Virus record (IMG/VR): IMGVR_UViG_3300031452_000163
Length of the DNA: 64,000 nucleotides
Direction: 5' to 3' (one strand)
Origin: a virus
Below, one piece after another: positions 40,838 to 63,213 of the stretch. The position numbers and the translations under genes are program-made. How positions within the stretch are numbered: position 1 is the first letter of the stretch; each line of letters opens with the position of its first letter. Under the pieces are notes generated by a model. The model did not search any database. It had not been told where the DNA came from and was given only the letters and a program-made list of their open reading frames with translations.

Positions 40838-41041
40838 CTAGATATGGATACTTGTTCCGGTTCGGGATGATAGCTCCTCCAGAAGTAGCTTACCTACATC
40901 GAGTCGGTCCAACGTCTGGCATAAATCCGCCACAACATCCGGGCTGTGACCTGCGGCAATTTGTCTGAGTGTTATCGCGATGGATCGATCCACGTTGTCT
41001 AGCGCCTGCGCACAGAGTTTCTTGTCAACCATATCCCTCAT
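40838..41041 (-). CDS. hypothetical protein
   Basis: Coupled to the portal stop codon. Confidence 0.5.
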   Translation of the reverse strand: MRDMVDKKLCAQALDNVDRSIAITLRQIAAGHSPDVVADLCQTLDRLDVGKLLLEELSSRTGTSIHI

Positions 41042-42432
41042 GGCGTAACCGGTACGCTCTTAGCGACGTTCGGCAATGGCCCTAACAACGGCGCAGGTGG
41101 TAGCGCACCCAATCCCTGTTCATCTGGCGGTAGGGCTAAACCCGCCGCTACTGCCTCGTCATGCTCCACGATAATCTGGGCCTGCTCTTTGTCGTAGTCG
41201 TAGCCCAGACGGGCGGCAATGGTCTGCTTGGACACAACCCCCAGCGACTCGTCGAGGATGAGGGCTTGCCGTTCGCTCATGGGATCAGCAGGCATCACTT
41301 CCGGCCAGTGCAAGGCCGTGCCGATGGCGTCGCCGAATCCGCCCATGGCGAATAAACAGCGGTCAATCTCGATCAGCAAATCACCGTAGCCGGTGCGTTT
41401 ACTCTCGGTCTTCTCCAGCAATGGTTGATAGCGAATCTGGAGCGCCACGCCGGACAGTGCGCCCATCTGATCCGGCTGCCCCAGTGCCACGAGCGGGATG
41501 CGAACCATCATGGCCAGGATGTCGAGCAGCTTTTCCAGGAGCGCCATGGTACTGCCGAGGTCGCTCTGCATCTCCAAGGCGTGGAGTTCAGCGGTGTCAG
41601 ATGGCAGGTGAATCACTGCGTCAATGGAGGCGTCAATGGACCGACTGCCCATGCCACGGGTCCAGAGTTTCGGATGCGCGTACAGGCGGATAATACGATT
41701 GTAGTTCGAGGCCACGCGGGTGATGGCGTCCATCACGTGCCGTACATCGCCGGGTAGGTCAGACTCACCCCAAAAATCATTCGCTCGGGGTAGATTCTGA
41801 CAACCCAATACCGGCGGGAACTCATACGGCCATGGCGTGGTCACGGTATCGACCCAGGCGCCGCCATGGAGTTCCTGATCGTGAACAATCCACTCCAGTG
41901 GTCCATCGACCAGGTAGCCAGCTGCTCCACTCGGGGTCTGCATCAACGTACGATGTTGCACAGATGCCTCGCCATTTGCCAGTGGTGCATTTAGCGGCGG
42001 CGTGATGGCGTACGCCCAGATATCCTCGATGTCGTCCGGGTTGGTGGTCACATCCACCGTCTGCGGATCGAGAATCACCACTCGTGGGTAGGGATCGTTT
42101 TCGACCAATCGCACGAAGGCATGACCACAAATACCGCCGTTGGTGGCGAGTTTTTGCAGGGTTGGCGCGCGTTTATTCCGTCTCCAACATTCATCGAGCC
42201 ATATCTGTTTCGGCTCGGGCTCGGCACTGGTCACCTGTGAGACAACTGGGCGGCCAAACAGGAATGAAACGCCCTTATCGACCACTACTCGCGCCAGAGA
42301 GATGATGAGATTGTCGTCGACACCGGCGCGTTGTGACCGGAAGGGCACGGATGATGCGCCCAGATAGGCGCGGTATGCCTGCTGCATGGATTGGACGCGC
42401 TCAGAGGTAACCGGCGATAGCAGTGTAGCCAA
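41038..42432 (-). CDS. portal protein (SPP1 gp6-like)
   Basis: NLIISLARVVVDKGVSFLFG..FWGESDL..SGVALQIRYQPL..VSKQT. Confidence 0.92.
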   Translation of the reverse strand: MATLLSPVTSERVQSMQQAYRAYLGASSVPFRSQRAGVDDNLIISLARVVVDKGVSFLFGRPVVSQVTSAEPEPKQIWLDECWRRNKRAPTLQKLATNGGICGHAFVRLVENDPYPRVVILDPQTVDVTTNPDDIEDIWAYAITPPLNAPLANGEASVQHRTLMQTPSGAAGYLVDGPLEWIVHDQELHGGAWVDTVTTPWPYEFPPVLGCQNLPRANDFWGESDLPGDVRHVMDAITRVASNYNRIIRLYAHPKLWTRGMGSRSIDASIDAVIHLPSDTAELHALEMQSDLGSTMALLEKLLDILAMMVRIPLVALGQPDQMGALSGVALQIRYQPLLEKTESKRTGYGDLLIEIDRCLFAMGGFGDAIGTALHWPEVMPADPMSERQALILDESLGVVSKQTIAARLGYDYDKEQAQIIVEHDEAVAAGLALPPDEQGLGALPPAPLLGPLPNVAKSVPVTP

Positions 42433-42478: not shown

Positions 42479-43159
42479 CTAGAGATTGGCGCTAGGCAGC
42501 GCATCAGGACTCACGTCATAGCGCACAGCGGCATACTCGCAACTGCACGCTAATGCCAGTGCCCGAAACAGCATCCCACTGGTATCACCGGCGTGGAGTG
42601 CGTCACGTATCCCATCCATAGCCGGAGTTGCCGGGTAGTGTAAACGGCCACCCTGCAGGATTGCCTGCAGCCGGCTCACCAGATAGGTGATGCCCACCTT
42701 CGACTCACTCCGCCAGAGTAACGAGGTATCGCCAGCATCGCCAGCGCTCACGATCACAGCAGACACCGCCGCCTGCGGGATCACGCTGTCACGGATTGCG
42801 TCAACCACCGGGCGTCCCACGTCAGAGGCATCAACCAGAACATGGTAGTCACCACGGCTGTCGGCATTGTAGAGACGGCGCGCCAGCGTATTCACACGTG
42901 CCGCCACGCCGGGATAGGCCAGCCCAGGCAGCAGCAGCTCGCTACCGAGCACGGTGTAATGGGTCTCGTAGATGGTCGCCTCGCCAAAGAGCGGATCACC
43001 AGCATGGATGATGCGTGGCTCGAAGCGAATGGCACACAACGTCGGAGCAACCTGCGCGCTACTCACCACGACGCCTAGTACGGTGGTCTGCGGTAAGCGG
43101 CCAGTGAGTCGAGCAAATCCTTGAGGTGTGGTAGGCAGGTCATCGAGCAATGTGGTCAA
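42479..43159 (-). CDS. stand-alone terminase RNase-H-like nuclease-domain paralogue, catalytically degenerate
   Basis: LGVVV, LPGLAYPGVAARV, LVDASDVGRPVVD, YLVSRLQAILQGGRL, FRALALA. Confidence 0.65.
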   Translation of the reverse strand: MTTLLDDLPTTPQGFARLTGRLPQTTVLGVVVSSAQVAPTLCAIRFEPRIIHAGDPLFGEATIYETHYTVLGSELLLPGLAYPGVAARVNTLARRLYNADSRGDYHVLVDASDVGRPVVDAIRDSVIPQAAVSAVIVSAGDAGDTSLLWRSESKVGITYLVSRLQAILQGGRLHYPATPAMDGIRDALHAGDTSGMLFRALALACSCEYAAVRYDVSPDALPSANL

Positions 43160-44724
43160 GGATCGAATAACCCCGCTGGTACAGCCAGGTCATAGTCGGC
43201 GGCGGCGGCAATATCCGCCGCGCGGAAGGCGTGAATATCGCCAAAGAGACGCGAGAGTGCTAACGATGAATTATCCACCTGATCGTCATGCGCCCCATTG
43301 GGGAAGGCTGTATGCTCTTCAATCCAATCATTAACCCACGGCGCTGATTCGGGCAGTGCCACGCGACCGGATTCGATGTACGGCGTGACGGCGGTGAACC
43401 GGGAAACCTTGCTCTCACTGCCAACACTCACCGCAATCACCGGTATGAACGTTTCGCGTTGGAGTGTTTGAATCAGCGATTGACCCGACGCCGCCTTTTC
43501 CACCAGTACCGCGCTGGGCTGCCACTTGGCAAACTGGTCCTTTGCCACCCGAACTAATTCGGGGAACTCTATGCGCTGCCGGTAAACATCCAGCACATAG
43601 GCGCGGTTCTGAGAGAGCGCCCAAGTGGAGCACACACTGTAGTCGGCGGTTTGATTGGCCTGGAATGCGGTATCCCAGACCTGGATAATTTGCGATGCCT
43701 GCGAACGGTCAAATGCCCCATATCGCTGCCACCATTCCCGTTTGACGATGCCACCCTCGGTGGCCTGCACTTCCTGCTGCGACTCGCTGAGGAAGGCACG
43801 TAGGCCGTAGGTGTCTATCGCATGCTGGCAGGCATCCAGGCCCTGCCCGGCCCACAATGGCGTCCCGGCAATGATCACCGAGCGCCCATCACACCGTTCA
43901 GTGACCAACCCCTGCACAGCCGGAAACGGGCCGGAGACAATGCGCCCAACCAGGAAGTCGGCGGTGTTGGAAGAACGGCCGGCCAGACGGCTGAAGATGG
44001 AATCGGGATGGATGAGATTCTGCACGGCCAGCACGGCCAGATCGGTTGATCCGGCGGGGAGCAGCGATTGAGTCAGCGTAGCAATTTTGCGTTCGGTGGC
44101 ACGCTGCGAATCATGCACGTTATCCACATCATCAATAACGATGAAGTCTGGCCGGTCATCGGCCATTTTGATGCCACGTGCCGCTGTATCCAGTCCCACT
44201 GAGTCAAGCGTGAAGCCGGCTCCGGTGCTCAGTCGGTTGCGTCGCCAGCCCCGTGATGCGCCGTATTTGCCAATGTTCCGTGCGCCCAGTGACGGGTAGT
44301 GCCGACTGAGTGCGTCTGACTCCAGCAGAGCGGCAACCGACAGCACATGTTTGTCTGCTAAGTCCTGTGTCTCGGATATGTACAGCCCATAGCGTCGCAC
44401 CCGACGAGCACCAACCGCCACACAGGCCAACTCCGCCGAACTCGATTTTGCTCCACCCCTGGGCCATATCGCTACCAGCGGAGGCGGTCCCACGCCGCCT
44501 TTAATCTTCCACACCCATTCCCAAAATGCCTCATGATGTGGGCCGAAGCCGGCGGTGACGTTGCGCGGAAAAAGCGTGGTGAGCCACAAGCGCCAGTCCG
44601 ACTCAAACAGCGGAGCGGGGTCATGTGCGTGGGGATCATCACTCGGATTGCCGGAGACCTGGGCGAGTATATGCCCCCATTGGGCTACGCTGTCGAAGGG
44701 CGCTGGTAATGGCATCGTGTACAT
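43156..44724 (-). CDS. terL: terminase large subunit
   Basis: WPRGGAKSS Walker A, FIVIDD Walker B, QVWDTA and AHDDQVD nuclease motifs. Confidence 0.95.
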   Translation of the reverse strand: MYTMPLPAPFDSVAQWGHILAQVSGNPSDDPHAHDPAPLFESDWRLWLTTLFPRNVTAGFGPHHEAFWEWVWKIKGGVGPPPLVAIWPRGGAKSSSAELACVAVGARRVRRYGLYISETQDLADKHVLSVAALLESDALSRHYPSLGARNIGKYGASRGWRRNRLSTGAGFTLDSVGLDTAARGIKMADDRPDFIVIDDVDNVHDSQRATERKIATLTQSLLPAGSTDLAVLAVQNLIHPDSIFSRLAGRSSNTADFLVGRIVSGPFPAVQGLVTERCDGRSVIIAGTPLWAGQGLDACQHAIDTYGLRAFLSESQQEVQATEGGIVKREWWQRYGAFDRSQASQIIQVWDTAFQANQTADYSVCSTWALSQNRAYVLDVYRQRIEFPELVRVAKDQFAKWQPSAVLVEKAASGQSLIQTLQRETFIPVIAVSVGSESKVSRFTAVTPYIESGRVALPESAPWVNDWIEEHTAFPNGAHDDQVDNSSLALSRLFGDIHAFRAADIAAAADYDLAVPAGLFDP

Positions 44725-47390: not shown

Positions 47391-47575
47391 TTTTCCTGCA
47401 TCAGCCTCACGACAACCTCATAGGGCGGCACCGGAAAGAAGCGCGGCTCTACGACTATCACGCCACATGATTCGCACGTATAGACACGCCACCTCTTCAG
47501 GTCTCCACTATAAATCGACTCGGTATATCCCATGGCCACAACCTCGAAATCATTCGTGCATCTCGGACAAATCAT
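47387..47575 (-). CDS. zinc-ribbon protein
   Basis: CPRC..CESC. Confidence 0.6.
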   Translation of the reverse strand: MICPRCTNDFEVVAMGYTESIYSGDLKRWRVYTCESCGVIVVEPRFFPVPPYEVVVRLMQEK

Positions 47576-48230
47576 GGCCTTCCTCCTCCTCGTCAGTATT
47601 CCTCAAGGAAATAGCCGCTACCTCTTCCCGCTCTCGCTTCCTCTCTGCGATCACCTCCGTCGGCACTTCCTCTCGGTTATCGTCCCGCACCTGCCGGCGA
47701 CGGCGCACCGCATACCAGTAACCATCACCCAACACAGCGCGACCACGACTCGCCAGGTGCTCTACCCGATCCACCGTAATATGCTGCATCTCCGCTATCT
47801 GCTCCTGGCGGTAGCCGTGCTCTCGTAGCTCCAGTACCGTGGATACCTCCGGGGAATGCACTCGCAGCCAAGCCAGGCGCGCATCATCACCTCGCGCCTC
47901 TCTCCACTCCTCCGGCGCAACGAACTGCCGGCCACGGCGCACTAACCGCTGGGCCGTGCGTACCGACACTCCCATAGCCGCCGCTATCTGCGCCATGCCA
48001 TGTTTGGCCTGATGCAGCGTGTACGCGCGAGAGGCTCGCGGGTCAAACTCCTGCAATCGCAGCAACTGTTCCGCCGGACTCCATCCACACCGGGCATGAT
48101 CGAGGTAACGCACGAACTCACCGCTCAACTCCGGGCCGACGATGGTATTCTGATGCCGATCCGCCGACGCGGGGCCTTCAGCCGGAGCACGGCCAACCGT
48201 GAGCCGCATGGGTATATCCGTGGTGCTCAT
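47550..48230 (-). CDS. tandem sigma70 region-4-like HTH regulator (probable late activator/antiterminator)
   Basis: GMAQIAAAMGVSVRTAQRLVRRGR and GYRQEQIAEMQHITVDRVEHLASRGR; sits just before the late operon. Confidence 0.7.
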   Translation of the reverse strand: MSTTDIPMRLTVGRAPAEGPASADRHQNTIVGPELSGEFVRYLDHARCGWSPAEQLLRLQEFDPRASRAYTLHQAKHGMAQIAAAMGVSVRTAQRLVRRGRQFVAPEEWREARGDDARLAWLRVHSPEVSTVLELREHGYRQEQIAEMQHITVDRVEHLASRGRAVLGDGYWYAVRRRRQVRDDNREEVPTEVIAERKREREEVAAISLRNTDEEEEGHDLSEMHE

Positions 48231-49521: not shown

Positions 49522-49716
49522 TTACTCCGAGAAGATGATTCCCTTTTCAGCCCACATAAAGACCTCTTCTAACTTCGTAACGGCGACGGATCTCCTCCGA
49601 TTATCGGGCAAAACAGATAATATGTCCATTAAAGCCACGCACCCTGCCCGAACACTCTTGATGTTTTCTCTCTGCGATTCAGTTGGTTCCCGGACCTCAA
49701 GCGGATCAGCGTACAT
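49522..49716 (-). CDS. Acb2/Tad1-like helical hairpin (candidate cyclic-nucleotide sponge)
   Basis: PTESQRENIKSVR..LPDNRRRSVAVTKLEEVFMWAEKGI resembles T4 Vs.4/Acb2 (AKTKLKEASMWA); AGGAGG SD. Confidence 0.7.
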   Translation of the reverse strand: MYADPLEVREPTESQRENIKSVRAGCVALMDILSVLPDNRRRSVAVTKLEEVFMWAEKGIIFSE

Positions 49717-50358: not shown

Positions 50359-50874
50359 CTATGACAGATGAGATTGAACATGGGAGACCATGGCCTGGAT
50401 ATCAACATCGTGAGACTCAAGCATATCCCACCAATCGCGTGAACGGAGCAGCTTTATCCATTCTCGATGACAGATCGAGCAAGATATACTCACCGGCTTA
50501 TAGATATCGTTGTTTTCATCGTCCACCGGCGAATGGAATTGCAGCGCCGGAAGCGCCGCGTCCTCAATCGGCGAAGACGCCTCATCATTGACTGGAAAAT
50601 CCGCATCAACAAAAGCCCAAGCGCGCTTCTTGATATCGTCGTCTACTCGATAGAAATGACGACGATATGTGCATACATAGTGTGTCGACGGCTGGTTTAT
50701 CGGTAGACCGTAAAATCCTTCATCTCCACAAGTCGGACAGGTTAACGGTAACCCATCAATTGCTTGCCGCATTAATGCTACGCACTCGAACACGGACAGT
50801 GGCAACCCGCCGTATTCATCCCTTACCGTCATCCCGTCTCCTACGGCCTCCATGGCAGCGCATGGCGTGGTCAA
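50359..50874 (-). CDS. hypothetical protein with Zn-ribbon motifs
   Basis: CPTC, CSIC; coupled ORF. Confidence 0.5.
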   Translation of the reverse strand: MTTPCAAMEAVGDGMTVRDEYGGLPLSVFECVALMRQAIDGLPLTCPTCGDEGFYGLPINQPSTHYVCTYRRHFYRVDDDIKKRAWAFVDADFPVNDEASSPIEDAALPALQFHSPVDDENNDIYKPVSISCSICHREWIKLLRSRDWWDMLESHDVDIQAMVSHVQSHLS

Positions 50875-51155
50875 GATAGTCTCGTACGCTCTTCGTCCAA
50901 AAATCGCATTGCCTCGCGCAATCCAGCGGCCTTGCCACGTAGATAGTCAGAGTCCTCAAAATTACCCGAATTATCGCTACCGACTGCGTTGAAGTTCATG
51001 CGACTGACCGCATTGACAACGCAATCTCGCTCAGTTTCTGGCACTGGCAACAACTGACCAGTGTGCACTATGGAATTCATCTCAATCCACCCTCCACAGG
51101 AGCGAAATACTGCTAGAGTATCGCGCCGAAACGTGACGAGTGTCAAATATAACAC
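50871..51155 (-). CDS. hypothetical protein
   Basis: GGAG SD; YLRGKAAGLREAM motif. Confidence 0.5.
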   Translation of the reverse strand: MLYLTLVTFRRDTLAVFRSCGGWIEMNSIVHTGQLLPVPETERDCVVNAVSRMNFNAVGSDNSGNFEDSDYLRGKAAGLREAMRFLDEERTRLS

Positions 51156-51235
51156 CCGTTAGAGCGGAGACAGGGCGGCGGCGACTCGACAATAAATACG
51201 ACAAATTCGCTGAAAACTCGGACCGAAACACTCGC

Positions 51236-51263
51236 TATATTCTATGGATATCTGTATAATATA
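51236..51263 (+). promoter_or_regulatory. 28-bp imperfect palindromic operator overlapping a TATAAT -10 box
   Basis: TATATTCTATGGATATCTGTATAATATA is 22/28 self-complementary; TATAAT at 51255-51260. Confidence 0.7.
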
Positions 51264-51296
51264 GGTATCAGAACACAACAGAGAGAGGAACCACCA

Positions 51297-51665
51297 ATGA
51301 CCACCGAGACCGCAACCGAAACAACCATCTCCAGCCGCTCACGCAATCTTGGCTACGGCTGGACCAATCAACCACGCCAGTACCGCAACAGTCGCGGCGA
51401 TAGTCTCCTGAGCGTCTCACGCTCTACAGGCCCGGATGTCAGCGGCGGTCTGAAAACAATCCTCACCGAGCGGGCGCGGGCACAACGCGGCAACGCGGGC
51501 AACGACTGGAGCGAGGCGCTGTTCGTCGCCGGGCGTCGCATCGCGTACGCCACCAGCGACACGACATACATCTACAATGGCAACTCCCACGCCTCTGTAG
51601 GAGACATCATCCTGGCACTGCGAGAGGGACACACGGTCGCCGTCCGCCTGGAGCACCCCGAGTGA
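51297..51665 (+). CDS. 122-aa orphan protein, candidate anti-CRISPR/anti-defence
   Basis: GAGGA SD; first gene of the cassette, GTGA-coupled to cse2-HTH; function inferred from context only. Confidence 0.6.
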   Translation: MTTETATETTISSRSRNLGYGWTNQPRQYRNSRGDSLLSVSRSTGPDVSGGLKTILTERARAQRGNAGNDWSEALFVAGRRIAYATSDTTYIYNGNSHASVGDIILALREGHTVAVRLEHPE

Positions 51666-52318
51666 CCACCGCCGCATTCCTCGACGCCCTGAGCCAGCTC
51701 TCACGACGAGAGCTGGCCCTCATCAAAAAGAGCAGCGGGGAGGCGATCCCCCCAGGCACCGCGTTGGAGATACCCGAAGGCGCGGACGAACGCCCCTATG
51801 GAATGGTGGCCTTCCTGTACGCCCGCTATCCGGTTGTAGCCGGGGAACGTGGAGACCTGGGCGCACTCATGCGGGTAATCAACGTCCGTAATCCCGACCA
51901 GGGGGCCGAACAGCGATTTATGGAGATGCTCAATCGCGATCTCGACGGTCTCCGCAAACCGCTGGAATGGACGCTAGCCATGGCGGAGATAGAAAAACTC
52001 AGCGTTGACTGGGGCCAGCTCCTCGATGACCTCACCCACTGGGAGGAGCCGGACCGCCCGGTGCAGCGAGCATGGGCGCGATCGTTCTGGGGCCAAACTC
52101 TGCCAGACGACGATGACCCTGAGATGACCATGGCGGATGCAGTGGTCGCGTTTGGCCTCGATCCCGGCTATCAGCAGCAACTCAGCCGAGCCGCAGCTAC
52201 CGAACAGTTTTCAGCACGCCGCGTAGGGAGAGCGTGGGTCACTCGGCATTCAGCGATACAGGAGTGGTTGGAGAATCGAGCCGGCCCCGGTAAACGGGCG
52301 AAACGAGTCACAGAGTAG
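51662..52318 (+). CDS. cse2: orphan type I-E Cse2 (CasB/Cas11) fused to a C-terminal excisionase/MerR-like HTH
   Basis: FLDALSQL, YGMVAFLYA, GAEQRFMEML..D, VDWGQLLDDLTHWEEPDRPVQRAWARSFWG match Cse2; MTMADA..ARRVGRAWV..IQEWL is a winged HTH. Confidence 0.88.
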   Translation: MTTAAFLDALSQLSRRELALIKKSSGEAIPPGTALEIPEGADERPYGMVAFLYARYPVVAGERGDLGALMRVINVRNPDQGAEQRFMEMLNRDLDGLRKPLEWTLAMAEIEKLSVDWGQLLDDLTHWEEPDRPVQRAWARSFWGQTLPDDDDPEMTMADAVVAFGLDPGYQQQLSRAAATEQFSARRVGRAWVTRHSAIQEWLENRAGPGKRAKRVTE

Positions 52319-52351
52319 AAAAACGCGCCTAGCGGCAATGCATTAGGCGCG
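52319..52351. terminator. terminator between convergent operons
   Basis: CGCGCCTA..TAGGCGCG stem; T5 tract on the minus strand. Confidence 0.65.
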
Positions 52352-52472
52352 CCGTTTGGGACTCGGCCCAAACTCCCCTCAGTGTAAACAGAACCGCCGG
52401 TCGCTGGCCCAAAACGGGGCAACGACTGGCGGTTACTGCGCGTTATGAGCACCTGCTTGCAGACGCCTTAGT

Positions 52473-52613
52473 CTAGCGCGACCGCTGCCACTCCGTAACC
52501 CACTCAGGATGAATCCGCGGATCGCAGCTCATCCATGCCAGCAGCCGGTCGATGCGTGCCTGATAGGCGAGGCAGTGACGGAGGAAGGCACCCTCGCGGT
52601 CGTCAGGCGTCAC
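52473..52613 (-). CDS. 46-aa hypothetical protein
   Basis: GTGA coupling to the DUF4352 gene. Confidence 0.4.
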   Translation of the reverse strand: MTPDDREGAFLRHCLAYQARIDRLLAWMSCDPRIHPEWVTEWQRSR

Positions 52614-53347
52614 CCGTGGATGGTCCAGTTGGCCGTGAAATCTGATGGTTTGTAGATGATCGTCGCCGGTGCTCCCGAGGATATTTGGAAGACGATATCG
52701 CGCCGAATGGTGCCGCCAGGCGCAAGCGTCGTGCCAGACGAGCCGAGATCGTTGCTAGTCAGAGACGACGCGAATTCGGGGTTGGTGATAACGCCATTTG
52801 ACTGCGCCGTAAATCCGGTATCCGCCACATCGGTATTATCTGTTCGGTAGTTGTGAAAGGTCCAGTGAGTCACTGCGTATTCATTCCCCGGATGTGGCTT
52901 CTCAAATTCAGTCCCGCTAGAGAGCGTCACCCCAGTGAGTGTCACATCGAGATTATCCGGCACATGGATCAGTGACCCAACCCCAGCGGTCTTCGAGGTA
53001 GGCGGTGACGTCGGAGGTGGCGATGTCGGGAGAGGCCGACTCGTTGCAGATGGATGATTCGGAACAACCGCGCCAGTGTTTGGCGTTAAAGTGGAACTAC
53101 TGGAGCCTGATTTACTGCCACCGCCAATGGCCGTCGCGATAATCGCAATTACTACGATCAAGACAATCAGACCGAGGCAACCGATACCAGCCTTCCGAAA
53201 GAAGCCACCCTTTTTCTGCTGAACCACCACCACCGGCGTGGCTCCTGACTGATTGCCAGCCACCGGAAACGCCGTGTTGCACTTCTGGCAGACCACCGCG
53301 TCAGGCTTACTCTTCGCGCCACAGTTTGAACAAAACTTATCCGCCAT
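52610..53347 (-). CDS. zinc-ribbon + TM + DUF4352 protein (candidate superinfection exclusion)
   Basis: FCSNCG..CQKC; GCLGLIVLIVV TM; LDVTLTGV..YAVTHWTF.N..TLAPGG..DIVFQI. Confidence 0.8.
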   Translation of the reverse strand: MADKFCSNCGAKSKPDAVVCQKCNTAFPVAGNQSGATPVVVVQQKKGGFFRKAGIGCLGLIVLIVVIAIIATAIGGGSKSGSSSSTLTPNTGAVVPNHPSATSRPLPTSPPPTSPPTSKTAGVGSLIHVPDNLDVTLTGVTLSSGTEFEKPHPGNEYAVTHWTFHNYRTDNTDVADTGFTAQSNGVITNPEFASSLTSNDLGSSGTTLAPGGTIRRDIVFQISSGAPATIIYKPSDFTANWTIHG

Positions 53348-53350
53348 AGC

Positions 53351-53830
53351 CTAATGTCCGTAGCAGATATATTTAATGTCGATCCAGGCGAGCGACATAG
53401 CATACCTAGACGCATCAGCATCGGTTGCCGCCTGATCTTTCCAGAACGTAGAGGTATCGTCATACGACTGCTGAGAGTTTTGTTGATCCTCGTACGCCGC
53501 TTCTCCGGCCTTTGACATGGAGGTGGTCAGATCGGTCACGAGTTCGTACCACCCGTTCGGATCTCCGTAACGACCAGCCAGTGTACTTATTTGCTCAGGG
53601 ATAATCGACTGATCCCGTTGGGCATCGTCGATGTCAAACTCGTTCGGAGCGAGTTTGGCATGACTCGATGCCGCCTGAACCAACGACCACGCCTGATGCT
53701 TAAACTTGCATGCTTTGGACTGGCCCCGCTGTGTCGGCGCCGCGTGTGCAACGGTGCTTTGAGCGCCACCCATGAGCGGGATCGCGCCAAAAAACACTAT
53801 CGCTAGACCAATGTTTCGCATCATCTTCAT
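53351..53830 (-). CDS. secreted hypothetical protein
   Basis: Signal peptide ending AHA; GGAGGG SD. Confidence 0.6.
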   Translation of the reverse strand: MKMMRNIGLAIVFFGAIPLMGGAQSTVAHAAPTQRGQSKACKFKHQAWSLVQAASSHAKLAPNEFDIDDAQRDQSIIPEQISTLAGRYGDPNGWYELVTDLTTSMSKAGEAAYEDQQNSQQSYDDTSTFWKDQAATDADASRYAMSLAWIDIKYICYGH

Positions 53831-53848
53831 GTCGTCGCCCTCCGTTTC

Positions 53849-54184
53849 TTACGCTACGCCTATTGTGTCAACATCTCCATAATGCCGTACCGCCCACCAG
53901 TGCGCCCTTTCCTCCGATGGTCCAACCCAAGCATGTGCCAGCTCATGGCAGAGGATCGCCCGTAAATGCCAGGGCCAGGCCCAATACAGCCACAGCGCGA
54001 GCACGATTCGCCTGTGGTGGCAATCGCAGAAGGCCGCTTGCTCTGGCGGCAAGTCGGCCCACACCACATCGACGCCGGCGGCAAGCGCATCCCGCGCGAG
54101 CACGTCCAAGCCAAACACGTGATGCCCTGGCCGCCCATGCGCGTTATAGAGGTACCCGTCTGTGTCGATCACACTAACGCTCAT
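53849..54184 (-). CDS. ImmA/IrrE-family metallopeptidase (anti-repressor)
   Basis: LCHELAH (HExxH), SEERA..WA; coupled to the repressor. Confidence 0.85.
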   Translation of the reverse strand: MSVSVIDTDGYLYNAHGRPGHHVFGLDVLARDALAAGVDVVWADLPPEQAAFCDCHHRRIVLALWLYWAWPWHLRAILCHELAHAWVGPSEERAHWWAVRHYGDVDTIGVA

Positions 54185-54660
54185 GGCGCTTCCTCGTCCG
54201 TCCAGCCGACGGACTCGCGATAGGCATCATCCGCAATATCGGGGCGGTTGTAAGCGGCATGTTCCGCCTCCTCTAAACGTTCGGCGGCGTACAACTCCTG
54301 CATCTCCCGTACTAGCCGGAGATGACCCAGAGCGACACGACGCGCATGGGGCGGTAAGGCACTGTAGATCCTGGTCACTTCCGGCGGTGGCGGTTCTTCA
54401 TCAGCGTCGCCCCACAGTCCTAGCACGCCGAATATCACATTGGGACTCACCCCAAACGCTCTAGCAATGCCGGCTGCCTGAAGCACCGTCGGCTGAGGAG
54501 CACCACGGAGCAGAGACCCGACTGTTTGCGGCATAAGGTCGGACTGGCGAGCTAGCTCCGATAGGCTCCATCCTCGCGCTCGCAGATTATCCTCAATCCA
54601 CTGAGCATAGCGAGCAGCGGCCTCACGCGACAGATTGCCCCGCTTCTCCGGCTTATCCAT
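54181..54660 (-). CDS. XRE-family immunity repressor (probably leaderless)
   Basis: LRARGWSLSELARQSDLMPQTVGSLLRG..IARAFGVS; TATCAT 5 nt before ATG. Confidence 0.9.
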   Translation of the reverse strand: MDKPEKRGNLSREAAARYAQWIEDNLRARGWSLSELARQSDLMPQTVGSLLRGAPQPTVLQAAGIARAFGVSPNVIFGVLGLWGDADEEPPPPEVTRIYSALPPHARRVALGHLRLVREMQELYAAERLEEAEHAAYNRPDIADDAYRESVGWTDEEAP

Positions 54661-55566: not shown

Positions 55567-55775
55567 TGAACATCCTGTCAGACCATGCTGCCCGAATATT
55601 CAAAGAATCCCACAGACTCACCGAAACCCTGAATCCTTACCTTAGCGTCGATTGCGCCGCTTTGGTTTCTGCGATGGACGCTATTGTATTCGCAATCGAG
55701 GGCCTCACGATCCAGTTGGCAGAGAACGCCGAGCGTACTCAGAGCGTGGATGCACATGTGGAGACCGGGTTTTGA
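55563..55775 (+). CDS. hypothetical protein
   Basis: ATGA coupling. Confidence 0.5.
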   Translation: MMNILSDHAARIFKESHRLTETLNPYLSVDCAALVSAMDAIVFAIEGLTIQLAENAERTQSVDAHVETGF

Positions 55776-56536
55776 GCGAGGTGTACTACAAGCTGCTAAA
55801 CCGGGACGGCACGACGCCGCTGGGGCATGGAAAATGGCCGCTGCCGGACGGGTACCAACCGGGTGAATGGCTGCCACCAATCGAGGGCGTACTTTTGCCA
55901 TGCATGAATGGCTACCACATCCTCACCTGGGATCAACTGCTCACATTGTTTTGGAACGGCGAGCACCTCTACGAGATTGGGGTGGATGGTGAGGTGATAG
56001 ATGCCGGTGCCAAATGCGTCTGCCGTCACGCACGAACAATTCGGCGGATCAAAACGTGGAATGACCGAAATCTGCGATTGTTCGTCTGTGATTGTGTTGA
56101 GCGAGTCTTGCACGTATTCGAAAATCAGGCGCCGGACGACGCAAGACCTCGGCGCACAATCGAAACTGCGCGACGATTTGCGCTCGGGCTAGCAACATCG
56201 AGTGAGCTAACCGCGGCCAAGGCCGCTGCCAGGGCCGCTGCCGAGAACGTTGCCCTGACCGCTGCCGGGGCCGCTGCCGAGAACGTTGCCCTGACCGCTG
56301 CCGGGGCCGCTGCCGAGAACGTTGCCCTGACCGCTGCCGGGGACGTTGCCTGGGCCGCTGCCGGGGCCGTTGCCGGGGGCGTTGCCCTGGCCGCTGCCGG
56401 GGCCGTTGCCGGGGGCGTTGCCCTGGCCGCTGCCGGGGACGTTGCCTGGGCCGCTGCCGGGGACGTTGCCTGGGCCGCTGAACGGCAATGGCAGCGAGAT
56501 CATCTCGCCTCCTACCTCACCGGAGCTATCGCATGA
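55772..56536 (+). CDS. DUF7666-like + Imm5-like protein with Ala-rich repeats
   Basis: C.NGYH..W..LYE; LRLFVCDCVERVL..PDDARPR..IE.AR. Confidence 0.7.
   Translation: MSEVYYKLLNRDGTTPLGHGKWPLPDGYQPGEWLPPIEGVLLPCMNGYHILTWDQLLTLFWNGEHLYEIGVDGEVIDAGAKCVCRHARTIRRIKTWNDRNLRLFVCDCVERVLHVFENQAPDDARPRRTIETARRFALGLATSSELTAAKAAARAAAENVALTAAGAAAENVALTAAGAAAENVALTAAGDVAWAAAGAVAGGVALAAAGAVAGGVALAAAGDVAWAAAGDVAWAAERQWQRDHLASYLTGAIA
56207..56480 (+). repeat. in-frame coding tandem repeats (33- and 24-nt units)
   Basis: AAAENVALTAAG x3, AAAGAVAGGVAL x2, AAAGDVAW x3. Confidence 0.85.
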
Positions 56537-61361: not shown

Positions 61362-61745
61362 ATGACCGCAACATACTCGATCACACAATCCGCTGAAACG
61401 GCACTGGCCGTAATGATGGACCTGGGCCGTACCGTGTGGCCTGAAAATGGCTCGCTGCAGGTCCAGGGCGCCATCTCCGACCGGATACACGACATGCTCG
61501 CCCGGAACAAGGCAGCCATCATTCAGGCGCTCACGGTAACGACCGAAATGGCGCCGCTGGTCGATTCTGAGGCGACACTGTACCACTTGATGGGACGGCG
61601 CTGGATGCTGCTCCAGGAGATGGAAACGGGTGGCTCTACTGGTACTCCCAGGTATGAGCGGACGTTCTACTGGTTTCGGATATTCGACATCATGTATCGC
61701 CGGATTGTCAACAAGCGGATGAACCGTGAGGCAGCGGCGGCGTGA
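61362..61745 (+). CDS. TubC-N-like hypothetical protein
   Basis: LQVQGAISDRIHDMLARNKAAIIQAL. Confidence 0.55.
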   Translation: MTATYSITQSAETALAVMMDLGRTVWPENGSLQVQGAISDRIHDMLARNKAAIIQALTVTTEMAPLVDSEATLYHLMGRRWMLLQEMETGGSTGTPRYERTFYWFRIFDIMYRRIVNKRMNREAAAA

Positions 61746-62110
61746 AATCCGTCCAGTGCCCCACCTGCGGCCAGCTCCGGCCTGATGTGCTCGCCGAGTA
61801 TCTCTCGGCGGCGTTGCGTCTGGTTGAGGGTGCAGAGCAGGAGGAGGCGGTGACATTTGCACGGGCTGCCGAACTGCTCGCGGTTAGCGAGACCACAATA
61901 CGCGGGTTGGTCGCATCCGGGCAGCTCCCGGCGGTCACCATCGCGGATACTCGGAGCAGGAGGATTCGCCGTGCGGCGATCTCCGAGTATCTACGGCAGG
62001 CCGAGACCAGGAGTGTGCGATGGCAGGACGACGAGGCAGCAGCGACGATGTTTGCACCGGGCAAGACCAGAGGACGGCAGCTGAAAAAAGCCACAGGAAA
62101 AAGCGCGTGA
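61742..62110 (+). CDS. xis: excisionase-like HTH_17 protein with N-terminal Zn ribbon
   Basis: VTFARAAELLAVSETTIRGLVASGQLPAV..RRIRRAAISEYL; coupled to int. Confidence 0.75.
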   Translation: MKSVQCPTCGQLRPDVLAEYLSAALRLVEGAEQEEAVTFARAAELLAVSETTIRGLVASGQLPAVTIADTRSRRIRRAAISEYLRQAETRSVRWQDDEAAATMFAPGKTRGRQLKKATGKSA

Positions 62111-63213
62111 ATAAGCAGGGCACGGTGTACGAGCGAAAGGACGGGCGCTGGGTGGCGGCGCTCTCGCTCGATTCACGGCAACGGGTCACCCGGTACTGTG
62201 CCACCAGAGCCGCGGCGGAGGAGGCATTGGCGCAACTGGTGCAACTGCGCGAACGTGGCCGGCTCTCGCAGACTGGACGGCAGACGCTCGCGACGTATCT
62301 CGCGCAGTGGCTGGCCAACAAACACGCCAGTGTGCGGGACCATACATTTGTCATGTACCGGGCCCAACTAGCTCACGTCATTATTCGCCTGGGCCATGTT
62401 CGTCTTTCCGACCTCCAGCCGGGTCAGATACGTGCACTAGGCACGGCATTGCTCGATACTGGCTATGCGACGGCGACGGTCAACCAGTGCCTGGTGATTC
62501 TAAAAATGGCGCTACGGGATGCCGAGGCGGATGGATTGATTGATCGGTCACCGGGGGCACATGTGCGACCACCACGCATCAATCAGGAGGAGCGGCGTTG
62601 GCTGTCCTCATCACAGGTTCGTGCGTTTCTGCGATCCTCAACGGAGTCGGAGTGGTATGCGCTCTGGATGCTGCTACTGGATACCGGTATGCGGATCGGG
62701 GAGGCGACGGCGTTGCGATGGAGTGAGGTCGACAGCGATGCTGGCACAATCCTGGTGTTGGCCACGGTGACACATCGCACTGGTCAAGGGGCAGTGCGTG
62801 GCGAGCCGAAAACGCCCTGCTCACGCCGCTTGCTCCATCTTGGACCGGATACGCTCGCCGCGCTCAAAACGCATAGCCCAGCGGTAAAGCGTCGTCGGGC
62901 GAGTACACGGGGTTGGGTCGATCAAGATTTAGTGTTCCCCAATACACACGGCGGGTTTCTGTGCGTCAAACAGGTCAACATCTGCCTGATGCGTGACCTG
63001 GGAATAGCGGGCCTGCCGCGCTTCACCGCGCATGAGTTGCGGCATACCATGGCCAGTCAGTGGCTCAACGACGGAGAGGACGTGCGTGTGGTGCAGGAGC
63101 GGCTCGGTCATGCCAGTGCCGCCATGACCTTGGACATTTACGGCCATGTCGCACCAGCCATGCATCGGGAGGCGGCGCAACGTGCAGCGAATCGGAGGAG
63201 GCAGACGTCGTGA
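62107..63213 (+). CDS. int: tyrosine integrase
   Basis: Arm-binding GTVYERKDGRWVA; TGMRIGEA (R), PKT (K), AHELRHT (HxxR), LGH, DIYGH (Y). Confidence 0.95.
   Translation: MNKQGTVYERKDGRWVAALSLDSRQRVTRYCATRAAAEEALAQLVQLRERGRLSQTGRQTLATYLAQWLANKHASVRDHTFVMYRAQLAHVIIRLGHVRLSDLQPGQIRALGTALLDTGYATATVNQCLVILKMALRDAEADGLIDRSPGAHVRPPRINQEERRWLSSSQVRAFLRSSTESEWYALWMLLLDTGMRIGEATALRWSEVDSDAGTILVLATVTHRTGQGAVRGEPKTPCSRRLLHLGPDTLAALKTHSPAVKRRRASTRGWVDQDLVFPNTHGGFLCVKQVNICLMRDLGIAGLPRFTAHELRHTMASQWLNDGEDVRVVQERLGHASAAMTLDIYGHVAPAMHREAAQRAANRRRQTS

Follow-up and report, generated by a model that had tools for sequence, protein, structure and literature searches.

The window analysed here, a 64,000-nucleotide stretch of viral DNA (bases 5669-69668 of the 69,957-bp IMG/VR record IMGVR_UViG_3300031452_000163), carries a short rightward cassette whose second gene encodes a protein of 218 amino acids (aa). 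This protein joins two domains, a homologue of Cse2 (also Cas11e or CasB), the small subunit of the type I-E Cascade complex, and a C-terminal winged helix-turn-helix (HTH). The best explanation for this arrangement is that a temperate-phage lineage captured Cas11e, which became joined to a winged helix of the excisionase type. As to its role, we favour with moderate confidence the view that the 218-aa protein is a Cas11e-derived anti-CRISPR (Acr) that would regulate itself via its own promoter; what points to its two components, the poisoning of host Cascade and autorepression, is analogy with known systems together with residue patterns. In favour of this view are the identity of profile and fold, the orphan status of the gene, its recurrence, purifying selection, changes in residues and charge, a conserved palindrome and an anti-defence neighbour. 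The elements of the cassette and its flanks, in window coordinates, are as follows.

51146-51117, - strand: sigma-70-like leftward promoter of the divergent early/middle operon (TTGACA, 18-nucleotide (nt) spacing, GATACT; 10 of 12 consensus matches)
51235-51264: candidate operator, a 30-bp imperfect palindrome (15+15 nt, no spacer, 80% complementary)
51255-51260, + strand: TATAAT, the -10 box of the cassette promoter, lying within the palindrome's right arm
51297-51665, + strand: 122-aa gene with the invariant N-terminal motif TISSRSRNLGYGW
51662-52318, + strand: 218-aa gene
51662-52102, + strand: its Cse2/Cas11e domain (aa 1-147)
52121-52276, + strand: its excisionase/BldC/MerR-type winged HTH (aa 154-205)
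52324-52351: GC-rich hairpin between convergent units, with an A-run on the 5' side and GUUU on the 3' side

A Cse2/Cas11e domain joined to a winged helix

Residues ~35-145 of the 218-aa protein fall in Cse2/Cas11e according to three profile libraries, and in two of these the score exceeds the curated cut-off (PF09485, 53.5 bits with a cut-off of 24.6; TIGR02548, 39 with a cut-off of 28.5; PADLOC Cas11e, 1.6e-17). A profile of the family matches Cse2 chains in the Protein Data Bank (PDB) at 4.6e-16 to 3.4e-7, with T. thermophilus Cse2 at 4.6e-16; the proteins matched are Thermus 2zca and 4h7a, M. ruber CasB (3wa8), the T. fusca Cascade 5u07 and the type I-E HNH Cascade 8yb6. The AlphaFold2 model, built with 81 sequences, has a predicted local distance difference test (pLDDT) score of 92. 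Its top 12 Foldseek matches in the PDB are all Cse2/CasB, with template modelling (TM) scores by target of 0.60-0.76, and the top named fold matches among AFDB clusters and in the ESM Atlas are likewise Cse2/CasB, over residues 1-151. Residues 1-150 are a genuine Cse2/Cas11e domain, as a sequence-only reading of this DNA had claimed for the N-terminal part. With Cse2/CasB proteins of known structure (PF09485, TIGR02548; 2zca, 3wa8, 5u07) the domain shares the helical-bundle fold and the arginine equivalent to R101 of E. coli Cse2.

We found no viral protein with a Cse2 fold in BFVD at E <= 0.001 and no AFDB fold cluster covering both domains of the fusion, and a language-model search of the Atlas gave no usable match. 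One ESM Atlas cluster (82 members) consists of 166-aa Cse2/CasB proteins, and Uroviricota is the commonest phylum among its 8 labelled members, which hints that further phage-borne solo Cse2 genes, lacking an HTH, exist.

In the same AlphaFold2 model, aa 154-205 adopt a beta-alpha-alpha-beta-beta-alpha fold. Foldseek matches this domain to BldC (TM by target 0.65-0.68, root-mean-square deviation 2.5 Å over 55 residues) and to the RdfS excisionase, and further fold matches are HTH_17 clusters of the Atlas and, in BFVD, excisionases and HTH proteins of phages. By sequence, PF12728 (HTH_17) gives 15-23 bits in four of five members, its gathering score of 27 not being reached; the TIGR01764 excisionase model matches four of the eight fused members (best E 6.7e-6), and when the C-terminal domain was searched by itself against PDB sequences, only chance-level matches came back. 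The C-terminal winged HTH described earlier from the DNA is thus borne out by its fold, with an HTH_17 sequence score below threshold. The fold of aa 154-205 is like that of BldC and excisionase proteins (6ama, 8dgl; PF12728, TIGR01764); however, those are small proteins, whereas here the domain forms the C-terminal part of a larger protein, scores below the Pfam threshold and is not encoded beside an integrase.

The gene is an orphan. Over the whole 69,957-bp record, neither Cas7e, Cse1, Cas5, Cas6e or Cas3-HD over cut-off nor a CRISPR array was found, so that the earlier statement that cas3/5/6/7/8 genes and arrays are lacking in the window extends to the entire record, with no complete I-E operon elsewhere in it. 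A Cas3_HD match inside the tape-measure gene (15 bits, below cut-off) was rejected as chance. Around seven related loci, described below, no cas genes were seen in the fetched DNA (<=8 kb per side; two contigs under 2.5 kb). In contrast, the cellular gene lies between cse1 and cas7, and two cellular Cse2 matches that we checked (P0013 and P0011) are in complete cas3-cse1-cse2-cas7-cas5-cas6e-cas1-cas2 operons.

The sequence-only reading had called for a search for recurrent solo cse2-HTH genes, and protein indexes yielded seven full-length fused relatives (34-76% identity) at the same position in related temperate phages. Four came from an index of 5.8 billion proteins (70-75% identity) and three more from an exhaustive search of 1.84 billion representatives (34-40% identity). 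The remaining matches among the best 150 cover the query up to residue ~190 only, nearly all ending by ~170; these non-fused matches are ordinary Cse2 (160-200 aa), tandem Cse2 or Cse1-Cse2 fusions, and no cellular Cse2 among the matches examined carries the C-terminal fusion. Pattern scans for the linker motif in genome, viral and metagenome contigs yielded no further members. The family is rare as far as these searches reach, and comes so far only from rock and soil metagenomes. Two short Cse2 matches, P0020 and P0021, come from contigs whose length does not allow a judgement.

Maximum-likelihood phylogeny of the Cse2 domain groups the eight fused proteins in a single clan (99/98 support), which a long branch separates from cellular Cse2. 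Pairwise ratios of nonsynonymous to synonymous substitution rates (dN/dS) among the four closest genes are 0.17-0.34 in each domain; consequently, in these genes both domains are maintained by purifying selection.

For residue comparison, the real E. coli CasB (NC_000913) was added to the 81-sequence alignment. In E. coli Cse2, R27 and R101 form salt bridges to Cas7 D22, the single change R101A abolishes immunity, and once the target is bound R107/R119 take over (van Erp et al., PMC4787809). The equivalent of R101, the main Cas7-anchoring arginine, is R85 in the 218-aa protein and is kept in all eight fused proteins; at the position of R27 they read K,H,H,R,H,E,K,Q. At the alignment column of E. 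coli R118, 71 of 73 cellular Cse2 (97%) have Arg and the eight fused proteins read E,E,E,E,E,E,Q,R, so that E102 of the 218-aa protein replaces a near-universal Arg of the L-R-Q/H helix. This agrees with the earlier observation that the RLRQ segment of Cse2 reads PLEW here, and two independent hidden Markov model alignments to PDB Cse2 chains place E102 in the same column.

Other changes concern the surface and the N-terminus. The Cse2 domain of the 218-aa protein has a net charge of -6, and the fused family spans -6 to +2 with an isoelectric point (pI) of ~5-6 in six of eight members; for the 73 cellular Cse2 domains the mean charge is +3.3 and the median pI 9.2. At the N-terminus, the fused family has a degraded R-R-G-L-G motif. 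Fused members that are only 34-40% identical nevertheless retain nearly all highly conserved Cse2 columns, and the motifs E-x-R-F, D-W-x-x-L-L-x-D-L and V-Q-x-x-W-A are kept. The phage protein thus differs from cellular Cse2 in having a 70-aa C-terminal DNA-binding domain, a Glu in place of the L-R-Q/H Arg, and an acidic net charge. An anchor that is kept, together with a later contact and a basic groove that are lost, fits a subunit that would be able to dock and unable to hold DNA. Read in this way, the protein would be a natural mutant that separates Cse2 docking from R-loop stabilisation.

The cassette and its candidate operator

The cassette is laid out as the sequence-only reading had described it, a rightward unit of two open reading frames (ORFs) coupled through a GTGA overlap, in which the GTG serves as the start of the 218-aa gene. 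The operator that was claimed at the TATAAT box also stands, as a candidate for binding: the 30-bp palindrome spans the -10 box and has no second copy in the 64-kb window, where 0 would be expected by chance. The consensus promoter scan found no good match to a -35 element for this TATAAT and consequently left the full cassette promoter uncalled. Opposite it lies the leftward TTGACA/GATACT promoter, so that the intergenic region comprises two back-to-back promoters. The bases of the leftward promoter are also conserved in the intergenic regions of the related loci L002-L005.

In the four close relatives, the 75 nt upstream of the cassette, with the 30-bp palindrome, -10 box and leader, reach 82-92% identity and are thus more conserved than the gene (77-82%), and in L005 14 of 15 palindrome arm positions pair. 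The conserved palindrome/-10 module stands before first genes that differ, encoding 122 aa in the window, 150 aa in L003-L005 and 79 aa in L002. A distant relative, L007, carries a different inverted repeat just before its -10 box.

Downstream, the terminator described earlier is seen as the GC-rich hairpin at 52324-52351 (z = -3.1; -26.3 kcal/mol for a 66-nt stretch), common to the cassette and the convergent cI operon, and is probably a two-way terminator. On the + strand its U-tract is weak, and the terminator scan passed it over on account of the short T-run. No Rfam family was found in 50800-52700.

At all seven related loci the fused gene lies in a rightward cassette, and in six of them it is the last gene, L003 having three more small genes downstream. 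The genes upstream of it vary in number and kind, from 1 to 4 per cassette; the gene directly upstream is of the 122-aa type in five of the seven. In loci long enough to tell, the cassette stands beside a leftward HTH_31/HTH_3 repressor module. The acr-aca-like architecture that had been proposed, Aca denoting anti-CRISPR-associated proteins, is thus found again in a constant HTH gene, variable upstream genes and an inverted repeat over the -10 box.

The 122-aa protein has no match in Pfam, PHROG, NCBIfam or PADLOC. Its AlphaFold2 model is alpha/beta (pLDDT 79) and finds no fold match in the PDB or in AFDB clusters. Of its seven relatives, at least three share a contig with a Cse2-HTH gene (in L002, in L006 and, for P0004, on a contig of 6,212 bp). 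Cassette genes of the related loci match only PHROGs of unknown function. As a separate observation, the 122-aa gene and the unrelated 150-aa first gene (L003:587-1039, L005:2505-2957) share their first ~22 residues, MTTETAT...RNLG..W, a similarity that is not significant by pairwise BLASTP. The two-gene cassette of the window may be a deletion derivative that arose via recombination between such similar 5' ends.

The cassette lies between a leftward cI module and a leftward operon that starts at ~51155 and includes a RusA-like gene. An anti-defence gene is found 1.6 kb from it:

49522-49716, - strand: 64-aa gene with an Acb2/Tad1 hairpin domain (PF24729, 50.9 bits, cut-off 27)

The product of this gene is likely a cyclic-nucleotide sponge against CBASS/Thoeris, and the family also occurs near the cassette in L005.

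Proposed role, alternatives and precedents

If the 218-aa protein is an anti-CRISPR, its mode of action might be as follows. The TATAAT promoter would give a bicistronic mRNA carrying the 122-aa gene and the translationally coupled cse2-winged-helix gene and ending at the hairpin. The winged helix, probably as a dimer, would bind the palindrome over the -10 box and limit transcription, like Aca proteins and Acr-Aca fusions. The Cse2 domain would dock on the host Cas7 backbone via R85, and Cascade poisoned in this manner would fail to stabilise or lock the R-loop, because the Arg of the L-R-Q/H helix is lost, the domain is mostly acidic, and ~70 extra residues would sit at the end that faces Cse1.

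Several points weigh against this proposal. No host, and hence no host type I-E system, emerged from a comparison of terminases, in which the nearest named ones, 40-57% identical, belong to Acidimicrobiales, Actinomycetota and Chloroflexota. With an identity to cellular Cse2 of only ~22-35%, the 218-aa protein was not recently copied from a host subunit. The Arg that is changed corresponds to R118 in E. coli, whereas the published role belongs to its neighbour R119, and R85 and the Trp/Gln residues could be retained for folding alone. Scans with Pfam, PHROG and PADLOC named no known acr or anti-defence family among the cassette genes. Finally, the palindrome was searched for in the relative L006 and not found; together with the different repeat of L007, this means that conservation of the operator holds for close relatives only.

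A minority possibility that we take seriously is that the protein is an exapted transcription factor without any CRISPR-Cas contact, in which the Cse2 bundle is only a dimerisation or scaffold module and the regulated unit is its own cassette or the divergent leftward operon. The C-terminal domain is indeed a good DNA-binding fold, the palindrome lies over a promoter and ~110 bp from the divergent leftward one, and the long branch to cellular Cse2, as well as the loss of the basic character and of the near-universal Arg, is what one would expect if Cascade function had been abandoned. Yet an abandoned function does not readily explain why the Cas7-anchoring Arg and nearly all highly conserved Cse2 columns persist at 34-40% identity; the palindrome is single in the phage, which argues against a wider regulon, and the gene sits among accessory and anti-defence genes. 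A related idea, which we think unlikely, moves the effector function to the upstream genes (here the 122-aa gene) and leaves the fused protein mainly as an Aca-like regulator, its Cse2 domain perhaps serving as a sensor titrated by host Cascade. That the fused gene is constant and last in six of seven cassettes while its upstream neighbours vary would suit this division of labour, as would the 122-aa protein, which like many Acrs lacks a known fold and bears a strictly conserved motif; Aca proteins, moreover, bind inverted repeats over acr promoters (PMC13551039). However, no upstream gene matches a known anti-defence family, and a plain HTH would suffice for such a regulator, so that some separate role is needed to account for a 150-aa Cse2 domain that is conserved and kept under purifying selection.

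The excisionase-like fold raises the further question of a recombination directionality factor with an unusual N-terminal domain. The match of the C-terminal domain to TIGR01764 and to the RdfS fold speaks for it, whereas the palindrome lies on the protein's own promoter and not at an attachment site. We consider this highly improbable and rejected it, because a separate integrase-adjacent HTH_17 gene (61742-62110) lies 10 kb away; the winged helix of the Cse2 fusion has no pairwise similarity to the protein that it encodes. Equally, good Cse2 profile and fold matches are what a working small subunit supplementing a host or phage CRISPR-Cas system would show, but no partner cas gene and no array lies in the record or in the flanks of the relatives, the basic surface is lost together with the 97%-conserved Arg, and the C-terminal fusion is foreign to the cellular Cse2 seen; we find this scarcely credible.

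Sensor and decoy functions could also be combined in the Cse2 domain, a suggestion we rate as quite unlikely. Docking on host Cascade would then titrate the repressor off its operator and switch the cassette on in proportion to Cascade, and the protein would be a regulator that measures the very immune complex it counteracts. In a variant of the same idea, the DNA-bound protein would tether Cascade to the operator.

The anti-CRISPR reading that we prefer has precedents, and the near-complete novelty claimed for the fusion was overstated. Katz et al. described AcrIB3 and AcrIB4, Listeria phage homologues of I-B Cascade subunits that assemble into a defective Cascade (10.1101/2023.06.24.545427), and a later preprint proposed that AcrIB4 replaces Cas11 in I-B Cascade (10.1101/2025.06.06.658234). 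The former authors also collected 358 orphan viral cas genes from IMG/VR, and their Table S3 has rows for I-E cas3, cas8e/cse1 and the type IV 'gr11' small subunit, with no cse2 entry among the 358 (10.1101/2023.06.24.545427). Like AcrIB3 and AcrIB4, the 218-aa protein is a virus-borne homologue of a Cascade subunit that lies among anti-defence genes without an operon or array, and its proposed mode is subunit replacement. Unlike them, this putative anti-CRISPR belongs to subtype I-E and not I-B, has direct, strong homology to Cas11 and carries a fused HTH.

A second precedent is the acr-aca layout, in which variable upstream genes precede a constant HTH gene and an inverted repeat lies over the promoter; Aca1-Aca13 are described, Aca12 being a domain of AcrIIA36 (PMC13551039). 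The cassette resembles these operons and Acr-Aca fusions in being short, in its HTH-bearing gene, which is usually last, in the inverted repeat at its promoter and in uniting a putative effector and regulator in one polypeptide. Its HTH, in contrast, belongs to the excisionase/BldC (HTH_17) class, and the tools used matched it to none of the described Aca families. Since Cas-derived Acrs and Acr-Aca fusions are already known, the phage Cse2-HTH gene does not constitute a new category; by comparison with these systems, it would be the first case for subtype I-E Cas11 and the first with an excisionase-type winged helix.

If active, the protein would be the first anti-CRISPR to descend from the small subunit of type I-E Cascade, and a clear example from nature of subunit poisoning directed at Cas11, a known weak point of Cascade to which AcrIE8.1 binds (PMC12883894). 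Its winged helix would represent a new class of built-in Acr regulator, and the variable upstream genes, including that of the 122-aa protein, would become candidates for new anti-defence proteins.

Wider gene content of the phage

The gene content of the window is that of a temperate siphovirus-like phage from rock metagenomes. Its structural and lysis genes run leftward, the replication and integration genes rightward, and a leftward lysogeny module (52610-54660, - strand) directly follows the cassette.

41038-42432, leftward: SPP1-type portal
43156-44724, leftward: terminase
leftward: tape-measure protein of 2,824 aa
leftward: SLT/C1-peptidase lysin
52610-53347, - strand: DUF4352/zinc-ribbon/transmembrane membrane protein with a weak PHROG match to a superinfection-exclusion family
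53351-53830, - strand: 159-aa protein whose hydrophobic N-terminus resembles a signal peptide
53849-54184, - strand: 111-aa gene with an HExxH motif, adjoining the cI-like repressor gene; it recalls ImmA/IrrE proteases and has no Pfam match
54181-54660, - strand: cI-like XRE repressor
rightward: replication module with a D5-type primase
61742-63213, + strand: HTH_17 gene (61742-62110, 39 bits, over threshold) followed by a tyrosine integrase

The HTH_17 gene directly upstream of the tyrosine integrase is likely the true excisionase of the phage. A tandem repeat at 56227-56480, inside the ORF 55652-56536, has periods of 24, 36 and 60, with ~10 copies of the 24-nt unit and 79-84% matches; it was rejected as a CRISPR array.

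The record is classed as a provirus and estimated to be 84% complete. Just left of the window, L013 (G000:C1:1029-3311) encodes a 760-aa fusion of an SNF2/DEAD-type helicase and an N6/N4 DNA methylase. An identical 760-aa protein is found on 70-74 kb contigs from other samples, which end nearby, inside phage DNA; consequently, this 'provirus' may be an entire phage genome that lacks host flanks.

Finally, a 226-aa protein (47550-48230, - strand), with two matches to sigma-70 region 4 (PF08281, 43 bits), may serve the phage as a sigma-like or late-gene regulator. L004 and L007 have homologues of it at the same relative position.

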